Shown here: one piece after another, positions 9,927 through 26,555 of the stretch
Numbering within the stretch: position 1 is the stretch's first letter
Layout of the letters: each line of letters opens with the position of its first letter
Assembly: GCA_966675205.1 (NCBI GenBank)
Contig: CBKWLJ010000059.1
Coordinates: forward strand, 1 to 26,555
Source of the DNA: an uncultured bacterium
Lineage (GTDB): Bacteria; Cyanobacteriota; Cyanobacteriia; Cyanobacteriales; Coleofasciculaceae
DNA: 26,555 nucleotides
Reading direction: 5' to 3'
Made by a program: the position numbers and the translations under genes
The notes under the pieces: model-generated
Told to the model about the DNA's origin: nothing
The model's input: only the letters and a program-made list of their open reading frames with translations
Database searches by the model: none

Positions 9927-10003
9927 AGTTGTCTAAAGCGTATGTAATGGGATTTGTCAGTGAATGGGTTAGGTTGACAGCTTGGCAGGTTATCTACTAC
10001 ACG

Positions 10004-10078
10004 TTCAACCTTCAACCTTCAACCTTCAACCTGCAACCTTCAACCTTCAACCTTCAACCTTCAACCTTCAACCTTCAA
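10004..10078. repeat. STRR-like heptanucleotide tandem repeat (TTCAACC)x10 (one TGCAACC variant; GGTTGAA on the minus strand); the last unit supplies the MCP TGA stop codon
   Basis: The repeat is seen directly. It occupies the 147-nt gap between the MCP and MHYT genes. Confidence 0.9.
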
Positions 10079-13017
10079 TGTTCAGCAGTGCCGATGTTGA
10101 ATCGACCAACAGACATCTGCAATTTTTCTGCCACTGCTACTGTCTGTCTTAAGGAATCGGAGACTTGGTGAGAGGAATTAGAAGTGAGTTGAGAGGTTTG
10201 GGCAATATCTTGCATCAATTCTTTAACAAGTTGAGAGGTTTGGGCTTGAGAAACCGTTGCGTCTGAAATGAATTGCACGATTTCATCAATTTGACGAGAA
10301 ACATCAAATATTTGCTCTAGATTTTGCTTGGCATCAATTACCATGCGGGTGCCATGATCAACCTGAGTTCTTCCCTTTTGCATCACCTCAATTACTTCTT
10401 TGGTACCATCTTGAATCGCCTCAATCACCTGTTCAATTTCTCGGGTGGCATTGGCGACTTGAGTTGCGAGTTCACCGATTTGTTCGGCAACCACTCGGAA
10501 ACCTTGTCCTTCTTCACCCGCACGGCTAGCCTCAATCCCAGCATTAATTGCTAATAAATTGGTTTGAAGAGCAATTCCCTGAACGATGGAAACTACCTTG
10601 GCAATTTGCTTGGACGATTCAGCCAGAAGCTTGACTTTGTCAGTGGTTTTGACCACTGTTGATTGCAAATTCAAGATATTTTCTACCGTGCTATCGATCG
10701 CTACTCCACCCGCTTCTGCCGCAATCGCAGCCGTGCGGGCAACTTTAGCCGCTTGAGTCGCATTTTGAGCCACCTCTTGGATGGAATGCGTCATCTGTTC
10801 AACAGCGTCTAGAGTCCGAGTAATTTCATCGGCTTGTTGAAGTGCAGCTAGGGAGAGTTGCCGGACAGCGTATTCATCTTCTTGGAGAGAATGATTGACT
10901 TGGACAGAGGTTTGTTTGACTTGCCAAACAATTTCTCGCAGGTTCTCGATAATGGAATTGAAAAAGTCAGCAACAGTACCGATTGTACTTTCTGTCACCT
11001 GAGCTCGAACGGTCAAGTCACCTTTGGCTGAACTTTCAATATCATTGAGCAGATCCAAAACTTGGCTCTGAAGTTCTTCTTTTTGCTGACGTTGTTCGAG
11101 AGAAACCCACTCGGCTTTTTGGCGGGCTTGTTCAACTTGCTGAGAAACGGCTTCTGCTGCCTGACGAGCTAATTCAGCATCTTGGCGCGATCGCTCTAGC
11201 TGTTCGAGGAGGAGGGATTGGTTGAGGGCAAAGCTAATTTGAGCGGCTAACTGTCTGAAAATATCCACTTCATAGTTTTGCCAAACTCGGGGGGCAGAAC
11301 ATTGCTGAGCCCATAACAAAGCGACGACTTCACCGTCTTGTAAAATGGGTACGATCATAAACGCTTTAACTTGAAAGCGTTCTACTAGTTTGCGATGATC
11401 GTCCGACAATTGCGCTTCATGCACATTATCGCAAACCCAAGCGTGTCCTATTTTGTATTTTTCAATCTCCTCTGGAGCTAATGGGTTATCGATGGTTTGC
11501 CCTAAGGCATGAATCCAGCCTGGTGCCACGGATTCGGCGGTGATTGTCCCACTTTCGTAATCCGGATGGATGCGATAAATCACCACTCGCTCTGTTTGTA
11601 CAACAATTCGCACGCCTTCAGCCGAGTTGCTGAGAATATCGTCTGAATTGAGCGATTTATAGATACTGCTCGTAAACTTAGCATACAAGCGCAAACGGTC
11701 AGCTTCGGCTAACTGCCGACGAGCTTGTTCGGCCAAAAAGGCTTCACTAGCGACAATGCTGTCTGCCAAATCATTAAATGTCTGTGCCAGTTCTCCAACT
11801 TCATCGGTACTCACAACATCAGCCCGGATTTTGCGATCGCCCTGAGAAAATTTTTGGGCGGTTTGTTGTAACTGCTTCAGGGGTTGAGCGATGGTTCGCC
11901 CCAGCCAAACGGCTAAAATCACATCAATTACCAACGTTAAGGCAGATATAACCAACTGTACGAGTAAACTCTCCCCAAGCAGTTTATTGAGTGCAGTTTC
12001 TTCCGTTCCCCGGACTAAAATAGCGATCGGCTGTCCCGTAAAATCGGTTACAGCTTTAGCTGCCATTGTGTAGCTTTGGGTTCCGGCAACGGCTCGTTCG
12101 GTGACAATTTTTCCCGGTTGGGCAACAGCTTTCTGTAGTATGGATGTACCCAATAGAGGAACATTGGTCTTTGCTTGCTCTACAGAGGTAGCTGCACCTT
12201 GGTCTAATGCCGTCGCTAAAGTAAATTTTCCAGAAGGTTGGTAAGTATAAACTGCACTGTAACCTCCACCAAAAGTGCGTAGGGTATTTTCGACTATTGA
12301 CAACTTGCCATTTACAATATCCCCAGCCACCAATGCACCAATAACACTGCCAGTTGCCGAATCCTTAACCGGAGTAACCGTGTAACGAATCAGAGCATCT
12401 TGTTTGGGAAAACCCTGAGGAAGTGACGGTGACTCCTTCGCCAATTCAGACCAACTCACAATTTGGCTGGCTTCAATTTGCTTGGGATTTTTGAAGACTT
12501 CACTCACTAAATTGTTCGGATTGAACGTCTCTCCAGCCCGATCTTTGTTAGCATTAACAATAATTTGCAAATTTTTGCCTACTAACGTTGCATATTCAAT
12601 GTTTTCTGCCTCAATTTCATTGCGAAGAACCTGCTTAACTTGAGCGCGCAAATCGGGTGTTAGACTTTGACCTGTGGCGTGAGTTTTCGCCGCTGTGATT
12701 ACAGCCGTGTTATCGGATTGGCTGCGGAAACCCGTAACCATTTGGTCAATTTTGATGTTGTAGTTAATGGCCGCAACAGCTAATTCAGCTTCCGCTTGCC
12801 TAAGTAACTGCGTTCGCCCCGATGTCACAATCAATACAGAACCGACCCCTACAAGCCCAACAATAGAAATTACTTCTGAAGTAAACAGTCCTGTAAGCTG
12901 CTTGCCTCTAACTGATAAGTTAGAAAACCATTCCACAGAAGATGATTGGTATTCTTGGGAGCGAGAATCACGGGTCTGAGAAACTGAGCCTGTAATTTTT
13001 AATTTCGCTGGTGTCAT
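10075..13017 (-). CDS. Methyl-accepting chemotaxis protein: TM1, about 290-aa periplasmic (dCache-like) domain, TM2, HAMP, GAF, MCP signalling domain
   Basis: 980 aa. The N-terminal TM (LFTSEVISIVGLVGVGSVLIV) and second TM (LLVQLVISALTLVIDVILAVWLG) flank a long extracytoplasmic region. HAMP (LKQLQQTAQKFSQGDRKI...ELAQTFNDLADSI) is followed by a GAF-like block. The C-terminal highly conserved MCP domain reads VQGIALQTNLLAINAGIEASRAGEEGQGFRVVAEQIGELA. Confidence 0.85.
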   Translation of the reverse strand: MTPAKLKITGSVSQTRDSRSQEYQSSSVEWFSNLSVRGKQLTGLFTSEVISIVGLVGVGSVLIVTSGRTQLLRQAEAELAVAAINYNIKIDQMVTGFRSQSDNTAVITAAKTHATGQSLTPDLRAQVKQVLRNEIEAENIEYATLVGKNLQIIVNANKDRAGETFNPNNLVSEVFKNPKQIEASQIVSWSELAKESPSLPQGFPKQDALIRYTVTPVKDSATGSVIGALVAGDIVNGKLSIVENTLRTFGGGYSAVYTYQPSGKFTLATALDQGAATSVEQAKTNVPLLGTSILQKAVAQPGKIVTERAVAGTQSYTMAAKAVTDFTGQPIAILVRGTEETALNKLLGESLLVQLVISALTLVIDVILAVWLGRTIAQPLKQLQQTAQKFSQGDRKIRADVVSTDEVGELAQTFNDLADSIVASEAFLAEQARRQLAEADRLRLYAKFTSSIYKSLNSDDILSNSAEGVRIVVQTERVVIYRIHPDYESGTITAESVAPGWIHALGQTIDNPLAPEEIEKYKIGHAWVCDNVHEAQLSDDHRKLVERFQVKAFMIVPILQDGEVVALLWAQQCSAPRVWQNYEVDIFRQLAAQISFALNQSLLLEQLERSRQDAELARQAAEAVSQQVEQARQKAEWVSLEQRQQKEELQSQVLDLLNDIESSAKGDLTVRAQVTESTIGTVADFFNSIIENLREIVWQVKQTSVQVNHSLQEDEYAVRQLSLAALQQADEITRTLDAVEQMTHSIQEVAQNATQAAKVARTAAIAAEAGGVAIDSTVENILNLQSTVVKTTDKVKLLAESSKQIAKVVSIVQGIALQTNLLAINAGIEASRAGEEGQGFRVVAEQIGELATQVANATREIEQVIEAIQDGTKEVIEVMQKGRTQVDHGTRMVIDAKQNLEQIFDVSRQIDEIVQFISDATVSQAQTSQLVKELMQDIAQTSQLTSNSSHQVSDSLRQTVAVAEKLQMSVGRFNIGTAEH

Positions 13018-16853: not shown

Positions 16854-19820
16854 ATGGCAAATACTCTGAAGAACTGGCAGCTAAATCTTGAGAGACTGCG
16901 AGTTCAAGATGCACAAGAAGAAAGTTTTTTTAGTAACGGAGATGAACCTTATTTTGTAGTCATTGGATTCCGTTCGCGCTTTAATACATCCAACTCTACT
17001 CAAACGTTTTGGAGCGGGTTTCTCAATGATGATTGGGCTGATGGTGTAGATGATGGAGATCAAAGAAATATTCCTCGACAGATGGGTACGGTATCTTTTC
17101 CGAATGTGAAAACAGTTACAAGAGATGAATTGTTATCGGGAGAGCAACTGGAACTAGTCGGAGCAGTGGCAATTGCTTTTGAAAGCGATGCGACTCCTTT
17201 TAGCACTATCCGCAGCCTAGTGGATGAGCTCAGGTCGTCCTTAGAAGGAGAGGTGAGAAGGTTGATTGAAGAAGGACAGCTGAACCTCGCCAACCCAGGT
17301 CCTGATATCGCAAGTGCGATCAATCAAGTTAAATCTAGCATCGAGCCAAGCTTCTTGGAAGCGGTTGGGCTTTTCCTAGAATCCTTGGGTGATCCCGACG
17401 ACGTAATTGGAATCCATACCTTCCTGTTTGCAGCAGCTGATCCAACCCTAGCTAACTTAATTCCACTCCCTTCTCTACCCAATGCCACTATCGGAGTCTT
17501 AACTGAGCAACAATTTACAATCGGTCAGAATCCAATTGTTTTCTCAGGTGACGGAGCAACTTACCAAGTCATGACTTCGGTCAGTTCAATTAGTGTTGAG
17601 CCGCCTAGGTCTGTATTCCAGGTCACTAATACAAATGACAGTGGATCTGGCTCTTTACGCGATGCCATCGCTCAAGCCAACGCCAGTGCGGGGTCAGACA
17701 CGATTAGCTTCGTCGGTTCGGTTTTTACCGATGCGATTCCCGATACCATTACCCTCACTTCAGGACAACTGAGTATTACCGACGACCTCCGGATTGCTGG
17801 GCTTGGTGCTAACAACCTGACTGTCAGTGGTGCTGGTAGTTCCGACATCTTCTCGATTAACGGCGCTGAGGTTGAAATACAAGGGCTGACTATTGCCAAT
17901 GGTAGTGATGGCATCAAGGTCAACAGTAACAGCAACCTGACGATGACTGACAGCATCATTTCGGCGGGAGAGGATGGTATTAGGATCGACGAAAACGGAA
18001 ACAACAACACCGTGACGGTGAGCAATAGCATCATCAGCAAAAACTCAGGCGATGATGGTCTTGAAATCGGGGGAAGTAACAACACCGTAACGGTGACCAA
18101 CAGCGCCATCAGTGAAAACGAGGATGGCTTAGCTGTTGAGGGAAACAACAATACTGTGACAGTGATCAATAGCACCATCAGTCTCAATAGCGAGGATGGT
18201 CTCGAAATCGACGGAAGCAACAACACCGTGACGGTAACCAATCACACCACCATCAGCGAAAACACTGGTGATGGCATTGATATTACAAAGAATGGCAACA
18301 CCGTGGAAGTGAGCCAGAGTACCATCAGCTTCAATACCCAGAGTGGTATCGAACTTGATGACGAAGGAAGCGACAACACTGTGACGGTGATCGGTAGCAC
18401 CATCAGTGCAAACCAAGATAGTGGTATCAAGGTTGAGGGAAACAATAGCACTGTGACGGTGAGTGGCAGCGACATTGTCGGCAACTCCGCTCAACTCTTC
18501 GGCGGCGGCATCTTTAGTAGCGGTGGTTCCTCCAACACGTTGGAAGTCAGTGATAGCGTCATTAGCGGCAACACCGTATTAGGCGACGATTTCGGCAACA
18601 ATGGTGGCGGCATCTATAACAGTGCCCGAATGTCGTTGACCAACAGCATCCTTAGTGGCAACACGGCGTTCTCGAATGGCGGCATCGATAACAGTGGCAC
18701 CCTGACGCTGATCGACAGTACCATCAGCAGCAATGTGGGGAGGGACGCCAACAGTGGCATCGGTAACAGAGGCGAACTGACGGTAATTAACAGTACCATC
18801 AGCAACCACCAATCACGAGGCGGCGACGGCGGCATCGATAACGGTGGTACCTTGACGCTGATTAACAGTATCATCAGCAACAACAGCGGAACCGAGGGCG
18901 GCGGCATCGATAATAGCGGCACTCTGACGATGCTCGACAGCACCATCAGCGGCAACACAGCAAGCGGTGGAGGTGGTATCCGTAATAGTGGTACTGTGAC
19001 AATAACTAATAGCACTATCAGTGATAACACAGCTCAGACCAGTGGTGGCATTGAGAACACTGGCACTGTAACGGTAACCAATAGCACCATCAGCGGCAAC
19101 ACAGGGAACAACAGTGGCGGTCTTTTTAACGGCAGCACAGGCATCTTAGAGGTGACCAACAGCACCATCAGTGGCAACTTGGCAGCAGAAAGCGGCGGCG
19201 GCATCAATAATGATCAGGGCACCGTGACGGTGACCAATACCACCATTACTGCCAACATTGCTGATAGTGACCGTGATGGCACTGGTGATGGCGGCGGCAT
19301 TTATAACGACGGTACCGCCGAGGTCAGGAATACCATTATTGCTGGGAACTTCGATAACTCACCAGCACCTAACCCCATTCATCCTGACGTTTCCGGCAGC
19401 TTCACCACCACCAGCTTCAACCTAATTGGCGACGCCACAGGCAGCACGGGCTTCACAGACGGCGACAATGGCAACATTGTAGGCACTAGCTGTAATCCGA
19501 TTGACCCCCTACTTGGCCCGCTACAAGATAACGGCGGCCCCACCTTCACCCATGCCCTCCTCCCAGGCAGTCCTGCCATTAACGCAGGCAACAATGCCAA
19601 TATCCCAGCAGGTATTACTACCGACCAACGTGGTGAACCTCGGATTGTGGACGGTACGGTTGACATTGGTGCTTTTGAGGCTGCACTCTTTTCTCCTATA
19701 GTGATTTGTTGTTGTGAATACAATGGCGACCCTTGGAACACGACGAACAATCATCAACTCTCAGCTTTCTCGACTGACACAGACAGCAACTTGATTCCTG
19801 TCGCGGATTGTTGGGTGTAA
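16854..19820 (+). CDS. Large right-handed parallel beta-helix / PMP-type repeat protein with a C-terminal 'choice-of-anchor Q'-like domain; no N-terminal signal peptide
   Basis: 988 aa with GGAG RBS 9 to 12 nt upstream. Residues 1 to about 250 form a unique hydrophilic domain. About 20-aa beta-helix repeats follow (NNTVTVTNSxISxNxDGLEIDGS), then PMP-like repeats (GGGIDNSGTLTLIDSTISGNTA). The C-terminal motif is LLGPLQDNGGPTFTHALLPGSPAINAG...DQRGEPR...DIGAFE, followed by an unusual tail ending ...IVICCCEYNGDPW...VADCWV. Confidence 0.8.
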   Translation: MANTLKNWQLNLERLRVQDAQEESFFSNGDEPYFVVIGFRSRFNTSNSTQTFWSGFLNDDWADGVDDGDQRNIPRQMGTVSFPNVKTVTRDELLSGEQLELVGAVAIAFESDATPFSTIRSLVDELRSSLEGEVRRLIEEGQLNLANPGPDIASAINQVKSSIEPSFLEAVGLFLESLGDPDDVIGIHTFLFAAADPTLANLIPLPSLPNATIGVLTEQQFTIGQNPIVFSGDGATYQVMTSVSSISVEPPRSVFQVTNTNDSGSGSLRDAIAQANASAGSDTISFVGSVFTDAIPDTITLTSGQLSITDDLRIAGLGANNLTVSGAGSSDIFSINGAEVEIQGLTIANGSDGIKVNSNSNLTMTDSIISAGEDGIRIDENGNNNTVTVSNSIISKNSGDDGLEIGGSNNTVTVTNSAISENEDGLAVEGNNNTVTVINSTISLNSEDGLEIDGSNNTVTVTNHTTISENTGDGIDITKNGNTVEVSQSTISFNTQSGIELDDEGSDNTVTVIGSTISANQDSGIKVEGNNSTVTVSGSDIVGNSAQLFGGGIFSSGGSSNTLEVSDSVISGNTVLGDDFGNNGGGIYNSARMSLTNSILSGNTAFSNGGIDNSGTLTLIDSTISSNVGRDANSGIGNRGELTVINSTISNHQSRGGDGGIDNGGTLTLINSIISNNSGTEGGGIDNSGTLTMLDSTISGNTASGGGGIRNSGTVTITNSTISDNTAQTSGGIENTGTVTVTNSTISGNTGNNSGGLFNGSTGILEVTNSTISGNLAAESGGGINNDQGTVTVTNTTITANIADSDRDGTGDGGGIYNDGTAEVRNTIIAGNFDNSPAPNPIHPDVSGSFTTTSFNLIGDATGSTGFTDGDNGNIVGTSCNPIDPLLGPLQDNGGPTFTHALLPGSPAINAGNNANIPAGITTDQRGEPRIVDGTVDIGAFEAALFSPIVICCCEYNGDPWNTTNNHQLSAFSTDTDSNLIPVADCWV
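17850..19290. repeat. Intragenic near-identical 60 to 69-nt DNA repeats encoding the beta-helix/PMP repeats (for example aacaacaccgtgacggtgaccaacagc, agcaccatcagcggcaacac)
   Basis: Recurrent nucleotide strings are seen directly. They explain the spurious antisense ORFs in the ORF track. Confidence 0.7.
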
Positions 19821-20040: not shown

Positions 20041-20104
20041 ATAGAGAATTCAGTAGGGACACGGCACTGCTGTGCCCAAACGATAAATTTGTTTTCATAC
20101 GCCC

Positions 20105-22564: not shown

Positions 22565-23998
22565 TTGAGTTATACCCAAACCCCCCAATCCAACACCACG
22601 CCGGGCAGTCCAACCCCCCAAACGCGCAAAGACCAACAAGAAACTCAGTTCAACCGCACCCGCGCCAGTTTGCGGCAAGCGTTGTCCTGGTATTCCAACT
22701 TGCGCCGCCATCGAGATCATCTCCCCGATGTAGAACTGCAAGCGGCACTGCGTTCTGAAATCGAGGCGTTGAAGTCTGCTTTAGACAAACTCGACCAATC
22801 CGTCATTCGCATTGCTGCTTTTGGTTTAGTCAGTCGCGGTAAATCAGCCGTTGTCAATGCCTTACTCGGACAGAAAATTGTGCAAACGGGCCCGCTTCAC
22901 GGTGTCACTCAATGGCCCCGTTCCGTCCGTTGGACTCCGAATGCCGAAGGGAAGGTGCAGGTTGAGTTAATTGATACACCGGGATTGGATGAAATTCAAG
23001 GGGAATCACGGGCGCAGATGGCACGGGAGGTTGCCACACAAGCGGATTTAATTTTGTTTGTCGTGGCCGGTGATATTACGCGGACTGAGTATCAGGCGCT
23101 GTGCGAACTGCGGCAAATGCAAAAGCCGATGATTTTGGTGTTTAATAAAATCGACTTGTATCCCGACCAAGATAGAGAGGCGATTTACCGACAGTTGCAA
23201 CAACTCGGAACAGGAAGTCCCAAAGATCGGCGTCTGCAAAGGCTATTATCCGAAGATGAGATTGTGATGATTGCGGCAGAACCCGCACCGATAGAAGTCC
23301 GAGTGGAGTGGCCCGATGGTCGAGTCAGTTATGAATGGGAGACGCCGCCGCCTCAGATTGATGAGTTGAAGCACAAGATTTTTAAGGTACTCAACCAGGA
23401 AGGGCGATCGCTTTTAGCCCTCAATGCTCTATTTCAAGCCCGAAATGCCGAAGCGAGTATTGCTAAGAAAACTCTTGAACTCCGCAGGGCCCAAGCAGAA
23501 GACTTAATCTGGCGCTTTACCAAGTATAAGGCGCTGGCAGTCGCACTGAATCCGATTGGGGTACTGGATGTTTTGGGGGGTGCTGTTGCAGACTTAGCCC
23601 TGATTCGTTCCCTATCCCGGTTGTACGGGTTACCCATGACGAGTTATGAAGCAGGTAAACTGTGGAAGAAAATTGTAGTCAGTTCTGGTGGCTTGCTCCT
23701 AGGGGAACTCGGTAGCAGTATGCTATTTGGGTTAGGCAAAAGTGCCTCTGCCGTTGCCAGCACCTTTGATAGCGCAGCAGGTTTGACGGCGTATGCTGGA
23801 AGTGCGATCGCACAAGCTGGAATTGCCGGGTATGGGGCTTATGCGGTAGGCCAAGCAACACAAATCTATTTAGAACAAGGCTGTTCCTGGGGAGAACTCG
23901 GCCCTAGTACTGTGATCCAAGACATCCTCAATCAAGTAGAACCCGATACAATTCTTTATCGCCTGCGGCAGGAATTAGGACAACAACTGGAATTATGA
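22565..23998 (+). CDS. GTP-binding protein: Era/EngA-like G domain plus C-terminal glycine-zipper (DUF697-like) region
   Basis: The G1 motif is GLVSRGKSAVVNALLG, G3 is DTPGLDE and G4 is NKID. The C-terminus is rich in GxxxG/A small-residue repeats. The start is uncertain: the ORF opens with TTG at 22565, has no in-frame ATG before the G1 motif, and the first 40 residues are low-complexity P/T/Q. Confidence 0.7.
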   Translation: MSYTQTPQSNTTPGSPTPQTRKDQQETQFNRTRASLRQALSWYSNLRRHRDHLPDVELQAALRSEIEALKSALDKLDQSVIRIAAFGLVSRGKSAVVNALLGQKIVQTGPLHGVTQWPRSVRWTPNAEGKVQVELIDTPGLDEIQGESRAQMAREVATQADLILFVVAGDITRTEYQALCELRQMQKPMILVFNKIDLYPDQDREAIYRQLQQLGTGSPKDRRLQRLLSEDEIVMIAAEPAPIEVRVEWPDGRVSYEWETPPPQIDELKHKIFKVLNQEGRSLLALNALFQARNAEASIAKKTLELRRAQAEDLIWRFTKYKALAVALNPIGVLDVLGGAVADLALIRSLSRLYGLPMTSYEAGKLWKKIVVSSGGLLLGELGSSMLFGLGKSASAVASTFDSAAGLTAYAGSAIAQAGIAGYGAYAVGQATQIYLEQGCSWGELGPSTVIQDILNQVEPDTILYRLRQELGQQLEL

Positions 23999-24018
23999 AT
24001 TATGAATTATGAATTACA
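23991..24018. repeat. Heptamer tandem repeat (AATTATG)x3.7 overlapping the GTPase TGA stop codon
   Basis: The sequence ggaattatgaattatgaattatgaattaca is seen directly. The stop TGA at 23996-23998 is part of the repeat unit. Confidence 0.8.
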
Positions 24019-24041
24019 GGAGAATTCAGGAGTCAGGAATC

Positions 24042-24154
24042 ATATCATTCCCGTTTGCATCAGAATTCACTGAAATTTTGCCCCAAAACCTCTGCGTTCT
24101 TGGAGCGAAAAACTCTGTGACCTCTGCGTTAAAAAATCTTATTCCGATAATAAC
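24042..24154. repeat. Left copy of an approx. 113-bp inverted repeat pair (about 88% identical to the reverse complement of 25764-25877)
   Basis: Manual alignment: the reverse complement of 24042-24154 (gttattatcggaataagattttttaacgcagaggtcacagag...caaacgggaatgatat) matches 25764-25877 (gttactatcggaatagtatttttttaacgcaaaggtcacagag...caaacggaaatgatat). Each copy carries an internal direct repeat ACCTCTGCGTT. Confidence 0.8.
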
Positions 24155-24238
24155 AGATTCAACCCATATTTCTTGTGAGATGGGCAGTCTTGCCCGTCTA
24201 GACCTAAAAATTGAAAGTGCAACAGCTTAACAATAATC

Positions 24239-25108
24239 CTAAAGAATAATGATGCTAAAAGCATCATCTCCAATATCCCTACGAATTTGGTAAATAGCCT
24301 GATAAACCTTAGAAACAACCATAAAACTTGGTCTTGAATCCGGTAAAAAATACAGACTACCAAACGTTCTGATATAGGAAGGTTGAATCACTTTAGTAGG
24401 ATTTCTTCTCAGAGGGTAATCCCAATCTTGGAATTCTTTTTCTAAAGCAACTATTGGCTGTTTAGATTCAGCTAAAGCAGAAACGTCAAAGTGCAGCGTT
24501 CCTGAATAATACACACCTGTATGCCATCCTCTCGGTTCATTTTTGGCAAACTCCGTTCCAAATCGTCGTCGTTTCACACTCTTGAAATTTGTCACCGACA
24601 GTTTAGCTTCATACTCTTTATCTTGACTCTTAAACCGAATCACCTCCATTACCATTTCAGGGGATGGTGCCTTTTGGGCGACTTCATAGTCTAATTGCTG
24701 CTGCAAAAAATCCTGTATTCGCTTTGGTAATTCTCCTGGAAGCTTAGGGTTTAGGGCAATAAATTTATCATAAAGAATAGGCTTTAAAGATAGCGTACTA
24801 GGATTTAAAGACCAAACATATCGTCCTTCTCTTTTGCTTTGAGGCGACCAAGGAAAAACATAAAAAGGAGAGGAGGGTGCAAAGATAACTTCGTCAGGTT
24901 TCTGCGAAGTCGTGTAAACTCTTGCACCTTGGTCAAACCAGGATAAAGGCTCAAAATGAGTAACCTTATTTTTTCCCACTCCAACTTTCCACGGGCTTTC
25001 AATCGCTGGTATGGGTCTACAAAACAGATAAAAGAATAATAATAAAGGAAGGATTAATGAAAAAATGCTAGCAATAATAATCTTCTGCCTAACCCTGATT
25101 CTTCGCAA
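24239..25108 (-). CDS. Hypothetical protein with N-terminal signal-anchor/TM segment; no recognisable family
   Basis: 289 aa. The N-terminus MRRIRVRQKIIIASIFSLILPLLLFFYLF is hydrophobic and the remainder is soluble. It lies inside the inverted-repeat-bounded segment. Confidence 0.55.
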   Translation of the reverse strand: MRRIRVRQKIIIASIFSLILPLLLFFYLFCRPIPAIESPWKVGVGKNKVTHFEPLSWFDQGARVYTTSQKPDEVIFAPSSPFYVFPWSPQSKREGRYVWSLNPSTLSLKPILYDKFIALNPKLPGELPKRIQDFLQQQLDYEVAQKAPSPEMVMEVIRFKSQDKEYEAKLSVTNFKSVKRRRFGTEFAKNEPRGWHTGVYYSGTLHFDVSALAESKQPIVALEKEFQDWDYPLRRNPTKVIQPSYIRTFGSLYFLPDSRPSFMVVSKVYQAIYQIRRDIGDDAFSIIIL

Positions 25109-25162
25109 CTGAATTCAACTCCTAAAGGGTGAGGGGGTATGAAAATTATAGAGAAAATATAA

Positions 25163-25220
25163 GGGCACGGCAATGCCGTACTCCTACCGTCGTTGATGTA
25201 AAAAAACTGATAGAGTCGAT
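25163..25220. repeat. Second copy of the dispersed hairpin repeat (GGGCACGGCAATGCCGTACTCC ... AAAAAAACTGATAGAG); compare 7650-7710
   Basis: Manual alignment shows a shared ACGGCAATGCCGT hairpin core plus a shared downstream AAAAA(A/T)ACTGAT(A/T)(G)AG tail. Confidence 0.6.
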
Positions 25221-25402
25221 TTATCCATATAGCCATGCAAGATAAATTATGAAAAATTTATATTTTATCTGTGTGCATCTGTGGTTTATTTTTCTCATAA
25301 ATCATTCCTGACTACTCTATATAATTGTAGGGGCAATTTATAAATCGCCCCTACTGCTTTTAATATCGGTTTTTTACTAACTCTGGAGATTTTCAAGAAT
25401 TG

Positions 25403-25654
25403 TTATGCGGAAGTCTCAGCATTGTTGGAGATGCTGATGTCAGCCTTAGCACGGTTCAACATAGCCTCTTTTAAATGTTCATCGTTGTGACGTTGTTGGG
25501 CTACTAACTCCCGCGCGTGTTCCTTAGTAAGGTTATTAGCATCATCTGGATTATCGACCTCTGCCTCTGCACGGTCTAACATTGATTCTTTCAATTGTTT
25601 ATCATGCTGACGATTCTGTGTTAGCAATTCTCGTGCTTGTTCTTCTGTACTCAT
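25403..25654 (-). CDS. Small hydrophilic protein (83 aa) built from two tandem repeats of about 35 aa
   Basis: EEQARELLTQNRQHDKQLKESMLDRAEAEV and KEHARELVAQQRHNDEHLKEAMLNRAKADI are clear internal duplicates. The underlying DNA repeat is visible at 25430-25640. The gene lies inside the inverted-repeat-bounded segment. Confidence 0.55.
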   Translation of the reverse strand: MSTEEQARELLTQNRQHDKQLKESMLDRAEAEVDNPDDANNLTKEHARELVAQQRHNDEHLKEAMLNRAKADISISNNAETSA

Positions 25655-25763
25655 GTGTTTTCTCCCTGTAACAACAAGCTTCTGTTCTCAGATTTACACG
25701 TTTCTAGTTAGACAGTAGCGAATAGAACAGAAAAATTCATAACTCTAAAGTAATATCCAATCC

Positions 25764-25877
25764 GTTACTATCGGAATAGTATTTTTTTAACGCAAAGGTC
25801 ACAGAGGTTTGCGCTCCAGGAACGCAGAGGTTTTCGAGCAAAATTTCAGTGAATTCCGATGCAAACGGAAATGATAT
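25764..25877. repeat. Right copy of the approx. 113-bp inverted repeat pair
   Basis: See 24042-24154. Together the two copies bracket 24155-25763. Confidence 0.8.
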
Positions 25878-25937: not shown

Positions 25938-26555
25938 TTATTTGTCTTCTGTTGCAGTCTTGTCACGCAAGTGAGAGGCTGCTAACTGGGTGATTTGTTT
26001 AATGGCGGCCAAATCAGGAGGTTGAATTTGGCTATCCATCCCCAGCCAAAGTAGATATTCGATATTGCCAGCAGGGCCAGTCAGGGGCGACCAAGTTAAG
26101 CCTTTGTACATCCAACCTAACGGTTGAGCGGCTTGTAAAACTTGTGCGATCGCATTAGCATGATCACTAGGGTCACGCACTACACCTTTTTTCCCCACCC
26201 GTTCACGCCCCACTTCAAACTGAGGCTTCACCAGCAACACTACCTCACGCGGCGGTTGCAGCAGATTCCACAACGCCTCCAGAATTTTCGTCAGGGAAAT
26301 AAACGAGACATCGACAACCCCTAAATCCGCATATCCTTCTGTTATCTCCCCCCCATGATCAGCAGGGGTTAGGGGGGATACCTCACCATACAACTGTGCC
26401 GGTTGCAGATAGCGAATATTCGTCCGTTCTTTCAAAATTACTCGTTCATCATTTCGCAGATTCCAGGCAACTTGCCCATAACCCACATCAACACCGTAAA
26501 CTCGTTTTGCCCCAGCTTGCAGCAAGCAGTCGGTAAAACCTCCTGTAGAAATGCC
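25938..26555 (-). CDS. tlyA: TlyA-family rRNA (cytidine-2'-O)-methyltransferase, 3' portion (N-terminus beyond window end)
   Basis: The frame stays open to the window edge (GISTGGFTDCLLQAGAKRVYGVDVGYGQVAWNLRND...), which covers the SAM-binding GxSTGGFTD motif and the FtsJ-like fold typical of TlyA. The N-terminal S4 domain would lie upstream, outside the window. Confidence 0.8.
   Translation of the reverse strand, partial: GISTGGFTDCLLQAGAKRVYGVDVGYGQVAWNLRNDERVILKERTNIRYLQPAQLYGEVSPLTPADHGGEITEGYADLGVVDVSFISLTKILEALWNLLQPPREVVLLVKPQFEVGRERVGKKGVVRDPSDHANAIAQVLQAAQPLGWMYKGLTWSPLTGPAGNIEYLLWLGMDSQIQPPDLAAIKQITQLAASHLRDKTATEDK

Follow-up and report, generated by a model that had tools for sequence, protein, structure and literature searches.

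Near one end of a stretch of DNA from an uncultured cyanobacterium of the family Coleofasciculaceae (GenBank assembly GCA_966675205.1, contig CBKWLJ010000059.1, positions 1 to 26,555 of the forward strand; this whole stretch of 26,555 nucleotides is called the window in what follows), two genes of the minus strand are enclosed by a pair of inverted repeats of about 118 nt, which are the subject of this analysis. The initial annotation, made from the letters of the window, had proposed that the repeats and the genes between them form a non-autonomous composite element bounded by copies resembling MITEs (transposable elements of the miniature inverted-repeat kind), a segment that inverts by recombination between the repeats, or a duplication of regulatory sites. 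The locus is organized as follows.

22565-23998, plus strand: GTPase gene (MMR_HSR1 and DUF697; slr1306-family-like), convergent with the 289-aa gene
24042-24159, plus strand: left copy of the repeat, flanked by the stops of two convergent genes, those for the GTPase (23998) and the 289-aa protein (24239)
24239-25108, minus strand: 289-aa gene (TTG start), with a transmembrane helix predicted at the N-terminus and a beta-rich domain after it
25403-25654, minus strand: 83-aa gene, two tandem IF7A-like repeats, conserved directly downstream of tlyA in relatives
25655-25758, minus strand: conserved leader or promoter of the 83-aa gene, which reads GAATTTTTCTGTT..GCTAC..CTAGAAACGTGT and contains the inverted repeat TTCTGTTCT/AGAACAGAA
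25759-25877, minus strand: right copy of the repeat, set between the stop of tlyA (25938) and the 83-aa gene's conserved leader
25938-26555, minus strand: 3' part of tlyA, encoding an FtsJ-type rRNA 2'-O-methyltransferase, which runs off the end of the window

Most of what had initially been described at this locus was reproduced. The flanking genes are indeed a DUF697 GTPase gene and tlyA, the 1.6 kb between the repeats holds two convincing open reading frames (ORFs), of 289 and 83 aa, both on the minus strand, and Pfam scans of the window ORFs of at least 100 aa gave no transposase, integrase or recombinase domain, as had been stated for the first two. Both copies of the repeat lie outside coding sequence, again as claimed: no ORF of at least 40 aa is confined to either copy of the ~118-nt element, and the listed ORFs that overlap the left one (24009-24230, plus strand, and 24139-24363, minus strand) reach past its borders.

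The inverted repeat is real and lies far above chance. In one gapped alignment the copies at 24042-24159 (plus) and 25759-25877 (minus) are identical at 106 of 119 positions (89%), so that the pair is slightly longer than the ~113 bp at ~88% identity first reported, and a BLAST comparison of the left with the right arm yields an E-value of ~4e-41. A repeat finder resolves the pair into arms at 24042-24136 and 25783-25877 (95 nt, 92%) and at 24131-24159 and 25759-25787 (29 nt, 86%); the longest exact run common to both arms is 19 nt. Repeat search and profile search alike found no copies in the 26.5-kb window other than these two. The internal direct repeat that had been ascribed to each copy is present as well, in the form of ACCTCTGCGTT, which occurs twice in the left copy (24088 and 24120) and, in the right copy, once exactly and once with one mismatch, against a chance expectation of 0.45 matches in the whole window.

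Each copy is assembled from short parts. The left one consists, in order, of a terminal module ATATCATTCCCGTTTGCATCAGAAT, a decayed mirror arm, four units (CCTCTGCG, CTTGGAGCG, ACTCTGTG and CCTCTGCG again), TTAAAAAA, and a terminal module TTATTCCGATAATAACAGATT. In the 3' half of both copies, the four units (CCTCTGCG, a second one that is degenerate, CTCTGTG and CCTCTGCG) are spaced 9-11 nt and precede TTAAAAAA, and this core of CTCTGYG units occupies 24085-24136 and 25783-25834. The 5' half appears on inspection to be a decayed mirror of the unit array (18 of 32 positions) and pairs with it in the predicted fold, where CAGAATTCACTGAAATTTTGC of the 5' half and GCGAAAAACTCTGTGACCTCTG of the array form the inner stem. 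The ends of the right copy make up a clear terminal inverted repeat, TCCGTTnnnATCGGAAT, and its TCCGTTTGCATCGGAAT and ATTCCGATAGTAACGGA ends pair in the minimum-free-energy fold (z = -3.4), the left copy being weaker in this respect. Overall, both copies are predicted to fold as long imperfect hairpins (z = -1.9 to -3.4), and five full-length members of the repeat family preserve the inner hairpin.

Two familiar kinds of element were considered for this structure and ruled out: an intrinsic terminator, given the T-run before the stem and the A-run after it, on both strands; and an integron attC site, of whose GTTRRRY core GTTAAAA is reminiscent, given its build of unit arrays, its inverted and not direct arrangement, and the lack of an integrase. 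No Rfam family was matched by the whole window at the gathering threshold, by the region at E-values up to 10, or by 12 loci that carry the unit module described below. The left copy had no blastn match among the PLSDB plasmids, and a scan of genome contigs with the 19-mer GAATTCACTGAAATTTTGC returned eight matches, all of them attributable to chance, in unrelated phyla.

We think it probable, at roughly 80%, that the repeat pair represents two separate insertions of a MITE- or REPIN-like element that happen to flank an old gene pair, and that it is neither a transposon nor a switch. According to this interpretation, a small, non-coding and imperfectly palindromic repeat would have inserted twice, each time separately, into intergenic spacers of an old cyanobacterial cluster, on one occasion in front of the small gene's leader, past the stop of tlyA, and on the other where the 289-aa and GTPase genes converge. 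Both insertions would be older than the divergence of two relatives, represented by the loci L012 and L143, from the window organism.

The comparison with these and more distant relatives carries the argument. L012, a 9.26-Mb JGI contig with the closest homologue of the 289-aa protein (89% identical), has the order tlyA, 75-aa gene, 289-aa gene, convergent GTPase gene and aldehyde dehydrogenase gene, the genes being 88-91% identical to those of the window in DNA, and carries both repeat copies at the window's two sites, the tlyA-side copy without the first ~27 nt. L143, a 1.5-kb contig with ~85% nucleotide identity, starts (1-53) and ends (1489-1535) within the two copies, so that the orthologous sites are filled in the window, L012 and L143. 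About 30 nt are identical at the two ends of L143; the repeat pair breaks short-read assemblies.

Beyond this group, the genes are found without the repeats. The order tlyA, 85-aa gene, 289-aa gene is kept in L013-L015 (70% protein identity) and L140/L141 (60%), all four genes are present in a contig designated P0022 (60%), the 289-aa and GTPase genes converge across a 15-bp spacer in L138/L139 (63%), and the 289-aa gene lies near the GTPase gene in Allocoleopsis franciscana PCC 7113 (L016; 61%). The tlyA-side site is empty in L013, L140 and the P0022 contig, where tlyA and the small gene are 90-105 bp apart, and the 289-aa-side site is empty in L138 (15 bp), L013 and L016. An nhmmer profile of the repeat found no copy at the empty sites of the more distant relatives, whose spacers of 15-105 bp are too short to hold one. 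The leader of the small gene, common to the window, L012, L143, L013 and L140, starts 10-15 nt past the tlyA stop in L013 and L140 and ~110 and ~200 nt past it in L012 and the window, respectively; since it abuts tlyA in the repeat-free relatives, it marks the insertion point of the right copy.

Judged by these alignments and gene orders, the succession tlyA, small gene, 289-aa gene and convergent DUF697 GTPase gene is ancestral, and the 289-aa gene is to be regarded as an ancestral resident of the locus, not as cargo. The synteny check that the initial annotation had named for its mobile cassette was thus run, and the enclosed genes proved to be syntenic with tlyA, and usually with the GTPase gene, in repeat-free relatives; because the gene pair keeps its neighbours there, the mobile-cassette reading fails. 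L140 adds a case of a different kind, with a repeat copy 7 nt past the stop of the 289-aa gene, at an offset unlike that in the window and without the hairpin that intervenes there; this copy probably inserted independently, in a convergent spacer of the same type.

The repeat is also dispersed. The nhmmer profile detects related copies at unrelated loci (L105, L061, L031, L114/L039, L016, L140), including a nearly full-length one directly after a histidine kinase/cyclase gene in L105 (E-value 7e-23) and a core copy after a DUF6812 gene in A. franciscana PCC 7113. Spacers between convergent genes hold five of the eight independent repeat sites, a location typical of tolerated small repeats. 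The distances of the repeat to the two stops show no pattern, and orientation is biased ~2:1 in the broad family. A bias towards the 'forward' orientation 3' of a gene was considered as a sign of function and rejected, as in convergent spacers it is true by construction.

Bacterial MITEs are small, non-coding sequences with terminal inverted repeats and a hairpin, located between genes and recognizable by filled and empty sites (PMC3184786, PMC3733652). The window element resembles such MITEs as Nezha of Anabaena and Nostoc, Correia/NEMIS of Neisseria, ERIC and RUP in its length (they measure ~100-200 nt), its non-coding nature, terminal inverted repeats and stable hairpin, in its intergenic location, often between convergent genes or right after a stop, and in the occurrence of filled and empty sites among relatives; for Nezha, the comparison is one of described features. 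At ~118 nt it also falls under the size limit of about 300 bp taken for MITEs. It differs from MITEs in that neither a target-site duplication nor an insertion sequence with matching ends was identified, and from the named ones in its interior of CTCTGYG units spaced 9-11 nt and ending in GTTAAAAA, which we have not found described for any of them. With the repetitive extragenic palindromes (REPs) of the RAYT/TnpA-REP system and their doublets, REPINs, it shares a palindromic structure, occurrence between genes as single copies or as inverted doublets that form long hairpins, frequent location at gene 3' ends, presence in cyanobacteria and a proposed dependence on a single-copy enzyme acting in trans. 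The defining mark of REPs and REPINs is a terminal GTAG or CGTC tag (PMC3733652), which is absent from the ends of the window element and of its arms; moreover, the arms are arrays of units, not self-complementary REPs, and the gene-bearing relatives discussed below encode a PD-(D/E)XK protein of the GxxExxY family and not an HUH Y1 transposase.

Several observations weigh against two independent MITE-like insertions. The part of the source genome that was searched, the 26.5 kb of the window, holds two copies, and two family copies 1.6 kb apart are more than chance would give for a low-copy family. No target-site duplication is recognizable around either copy, nor in L012, although the insertions are old and a short duplication could have decayed. 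The window and the cyanobacterial loci examined yielded neither an autonomous partner nor an insertion sequence with matching ends. Finally, the copies may not evolve independently, as those of the window are more similar to each other (88-89%) than to their orthologues in L012 (80-83%; the two L012 copies are 81% identical). At the informative sites, four group the copies by genome and one groups them by position, but three of the four amount to one contiguous change (TGGAGCG versus TCCGCG), so that the signal comes down to two events against one and is treated as a hint. Occasional gene conversion between the arms would fit this pattern, as would selection for complementarity; if the former took place, the two copies may now and then homogenise each other.

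Part of the same evidence could be read as a sign of function: the repeats might be retained cis-acting elements, acting either in RNA, as hairpins that stabilise or bound the ends of transcripts or by pairing of a 5' with a 3' copy on one transcript of the 83-aa and 289-aa genes, or in DNA, as binding sites that insulate the gene pair, and selection or conversion would keep them alike. Such elements would account for the fact that three genomes have kept both copies at identical sites, for a similarity within the genome (88-89%) that exceeds the one between orthologues (80-83%), for the copy that L140 likewise has 3' of its 289-aa gene, and for the better folding, by means of G-U pairs, of the strand that reads TTTTTTAACGCAGAGG (-12.6 versus -5.2 kcal/mol for the consensus). 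That strand, however, is sense to the 289-aa gene in the left copy and antisense to tlyA and the 83-aa gene in the right copy, so the two copies have no consistent orientation in a transcript, and a terminator-like hairpin and a promoter-like site between the two enclosed genes argue against a single bicistronic RNA that would include both copies. A compensatory change is seen at one base pair only among five sequences, relatives that have these genes lack the repeat, and the same element adjoins unrelated genes elsewhere. We therefore regard retained cis-acting elements as rather unlikely, and the regulatory duplication specific to this locus, which had been one of the initial proposals, is likewise made improbable by the presence of the element beside unrelated genes in other contigs. 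An effect on the neighbouring genes, such as that of hairpins in transcript ends, would be a by-product of the insertions.

Bracketing by inverted repeats of ~118 nt and 89% identity is also what gave rise to the proposal that the 1.6-kb segment inverts through its arms and flips both genes relative to the tlyA and GTPase units, and the de Bruijn contig L143 does break in both copies, as is expected wherever an assembler meets repeats. Yet a single orientation was found in all eight independent sequences that show the gene order (the window, L012, L143, L001-L003, L013 and L140, a small sample of assembled sequences), among them three 99%-identical metagenome contigs from different samples, L001-L003, that cross the tlyA junction, and this orientation is the ancestral one in which tlyA, the small gene and the 289-aa gene are co-directional in repeat-free genomes. 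RecA-type homologous recombination has a minimal efficient substrate that the longest exact run of the arms, 19 nt, at best reaches, and the scanned ORFs of at least 100 aa in the 26.5 kb encode no invertase or other recombinase. What the locus shares with invertons such as fimS and hin, or with pdif/XerCD modules, is a short segment of DNA between inverted repeats; it differs from them in having no invertase or Xer-type site, in being seen in one orientation, and in that its repeats are copies of a dispersed family. Inversion is thus left without support and is very improbable. A composite non-autonomous transposon, in which two MITE-like copies and the two genes would move together, would have the right geometry and a repeat family that has been mobile over evolutionary time, but the genes occupy the same neighbourhood without repeats in several more distant relatives, the gene pair with its repeats was never found in another context, no direct repeats flank it, and the GTTAAAAAA ends face inward in both copies while they are outermost in the gene-bearing GxxExxY elements. 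We consider it extremely improbable. Accordingly, the MITE-like character of the individual copies, small, non-coding, dispersed hairpins with terminal inverted repeats and with filled and empty sites, stands from the initial annotation, and the mobilisable cassette, contradicted by synteny, does not.

Inverted repeats around genes in repeat-rich cyanobacterial genomes thus need not mean that the DNA is mobile or switchable, and at the window locus it is the synteny with repeat-free relatives that settles the question of a cassette. Other small repeats abound between the genes of this genome, such as arrays of ATCTGYG units at a vault protein gene and hairpins at three sites, and their presence in the spacers of the window makes the bracketing of the gene pair unremarkable.

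The observation at the window itself is ordinary, and the more interesting lead is the unit module in other phyla and its association with GxxExxY genes. A scan of metagenomes with the pattern CTCTGT-N3-4-CTYTGCGTTAAAAA (metagenome loci L018-L137; plasmid loci are L144-L147) revealed the module in at least 120 contigs with a GC content of 28-68%. At 113 non-identical sites, further CTCTGYG units are located at -9, -18/-20 and -29 nt from the last unit, and mirror units (CRCAGAG) 40-100 nt upstream or 20-60 nt downstream; mostly the module forms hairpin elements of ~100 nt (for example L111, L132 and L059), and a contig may hold several copies, as does L056 with 21 arrays in 14 kb. All-against-all clustering of the ORFs around the 113 sites gave generic ABC ATPases and the GxxExxY protein as the sole recurrent neighbours. 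The latter, of ~125 aa, is encoded at four of the loci selected by motif, where the module makes up inverted arms on both sides of the gene, with E-values of ~1e-40 to 1e-43 against TIGR04256, and at one of them, L022, its gene lies inside inverted repeats of ~70 nt whose outer part consists of four units and GTTAAAAAAAA, nearly the array of the window.

A second sample was selected by protein instead of by motif. A tblastn search of plasmids with GxxExxY yielded eight records. Inverted unit arrays bracket each of the four closest homologues (43-53% identical), which come from Gemmatirosa, Bernardetia, Sphingomonas (where the unit is the variant CTTCGCG) and Bacteroides finegoldii. Three of these four genes are set in short spacers (between fabD and fabG, between radA and the next gene, and between ade and manC), the Gemmatirosa record being unannotated. 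The four more distant homologues (36-42%) have no CTCTGYG units, and three of them (L149-L151) have other flanking repeats, so that the type of repeat seems to co-vary with the GxxExxY subfamily; those of L149 and L150 are direct repeats such as AGATTTAATCCGTGTACCTAT, and L151 has inverted units of the ATCCGTG type. ATCCGYG units also litter L056.

The window element shares with the GxxExxY insertions three to four CTCTGYG units at 9-11-nt spacing and the terminal GTTAAAAA; the gene-less palindromes L111 and L132 look like deletion derivatives of such insertions, and the element of the window has the same layout with one arm decayed. It differs in its additional terminal modules, which are specific to cyanobacteria, and the link consists of a short repetitive motif and a common architecture, with no long alignable sequence. 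The GTTAAAAA ends face outward in the gene-bearing elements and inward in the window pair, which means that the pair is not one element of the GxxExxY type. Searches by tblastn with three GxxExxY proteins had no hits in the window or among the cyanobacterial loci examined, and no relative was confirmed in viral contigs.

It is conceivable, and we put it forward tentatively, that the window repeat is a gene-less derivative of a cross-phylum family of CTCTGYG-GTTAAAAA palindromes whose gene-bearing form encodes a GxxExxY nuclease. That GxxExxY mobilises these repeats is something that we infer and did not obtain as a result; the element presumably spreads by means of an enzyme acting in trans, for which this PD-(D/E)XK protein is the sole candidate encountered. 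A survey of PD-(D/E)XK proteins describes PDDEXK_3 as a group of unknown function that has undergone multiple transfers between lineages (PMC3424549). In the literature searched, there is no description of the module or of arrays around GxxExxY genes (TIGR04256 / PF13366 PDDEXK_3). The module brackets GxxExxY genes in Bacteroidota, Gemmatimonadota and Alphaproteobacteria, and if the association is causal, a large family of unknown function would gain a role, and an explanation would be at hand for a common class of hairpins between genes, which can break assemblies and may go without annotation. GxxExxY would then be the mobilising or homing enzyme of widespread small selfish elements, absent from the literature searched, that wedge into very short spacers of housekeeping genes and leave MITE-like hairpins behind, in cyanobacteria as elsewhere. 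To our knowledge, GxxExxY insertions between inverted unit arrays have no formal name.

The two enclosed genes largely bear out their initial description. The product of the 289-aa gene, taken to be membrane-anchored, has a strongly hydrophobic N-terminus, with a helix modelled over residues 2-30. It matches no Pfam or NCBIfam family and, in a look-up of the exact sequence, is not on record; a low-confidence AlphaFold2 model (pLDDT 61), with the transmembrane helix and beta sheets, gave no Foldseek match in the PDB below E = 0.1, and no match to a nuclease- or recombinase-like fold. Thirty-six homologues were found, whose named sources, together with the synteny, point to filamentous cyanobacteria.

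The 83-aa protein is made of two tandem repeats, as had been proposed, of ~37 rather than 35 aa and identical at 18 of 37 positions. It matches the first 40 positions of the IF7A model NF052599 with an E-value of 2.7e-10 and 40 bits, below the curated cut-off of 70; each half matches IF7A alone (3e-7 and 1e-3), and so do the orthologues in L012, L013 and L140. On the strength of these profile matches, the protein is best described as a tandem duplication of the motif of IF7, a glutamine synthetase inactivating factor, and not as a certified IF7. The 50 homologues either lack a name or bear a plainly spurious one, and those with a named source come from cyanobacteria; a tandem-duplicated IF7-like gene next to tlyA is a hint that filamentous cyanobacteria may have a relative, as yet unstudied, of the factors that inactivate glutamine synthetase. 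The leader, which includes the inverted repeat TTCTGTTCT ... AGAACAGAA, may be a promoter or a structure of the 5' untranslated region. An NtcA-like site, TGTA-N8-AACA, upstream of the gene in the window and L012 is not claimed as such, since it is not conserved in L013 and L140.

The segment between the repeats and its surroundings contain further small repeats, two of which recur in the window.

25160-25187, no strand assigned: GC-rich hairpin repeat (TAAGGGCACGGCAATGCCGTACTCCTAC; TAGGGGTACGGCAATGCCGTACCC-like), with further copies at 7648-7675 and 20054-20081
25264-25290, plus strand: TTTATCTGTGTGCATCTGTGGTTTATT, an array of ATCTGYG units (sibling repeat type) that recurs at 4583-4620 and 7711-7739

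The former is the dispersed hairpin repeat that had been noted in the segment; it has a terminator-like score on the minus strand, between the 83-aa and 289-aa genes, and is found in the same place in L012. A palindrome with a perfect stem, GTAGGGGCAATTTATAAATCGCCCCTAC, lies at 25327-25354 in the same spacer. The shorter spacer of L012 lacks both the ATCTGYG array and this palindrome, which indicates that small repeats have been gained or lost since the lineages split. Between the stop of the 289-aa gene and the left repeat, a small hairpin, GACGGGCAAGACTGCCCATC (minus strand, 24179-24198), is conserved in L012 and L143 and absent in L140; no U-run follows it.

Elsewhere in the window, a second case of inverted small repeats around genes was encountered. 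An 892-aa homologue of the major vault protein of eukaryotes (4922-7600, plus strand; Pfam Vault, E-value 3e-67, MVP_shoulder, 9e-55, and Vault_2/3/4) is encoded between inverted ATCTGYG arrays at 4583-4620 (plus) and 7711-7739 (minus), which end in GTTAATTAA / GGTTCATAAA. Between a gene for an MHYT-domain protein and one for an MCP/GAF protein, ~13 tandem CAACCTT heptamers (9987-10091) form an array similar to the short tandemly repeated heptamers known from filamentous cyanobacteria. A 988-aa right-handed beta-helix protein (16854-19820, plus strand) is encoded by a gene that contains ~16 degenerate repeats of 69-78 nt, corresponding to coding repeats of ~24 aa.

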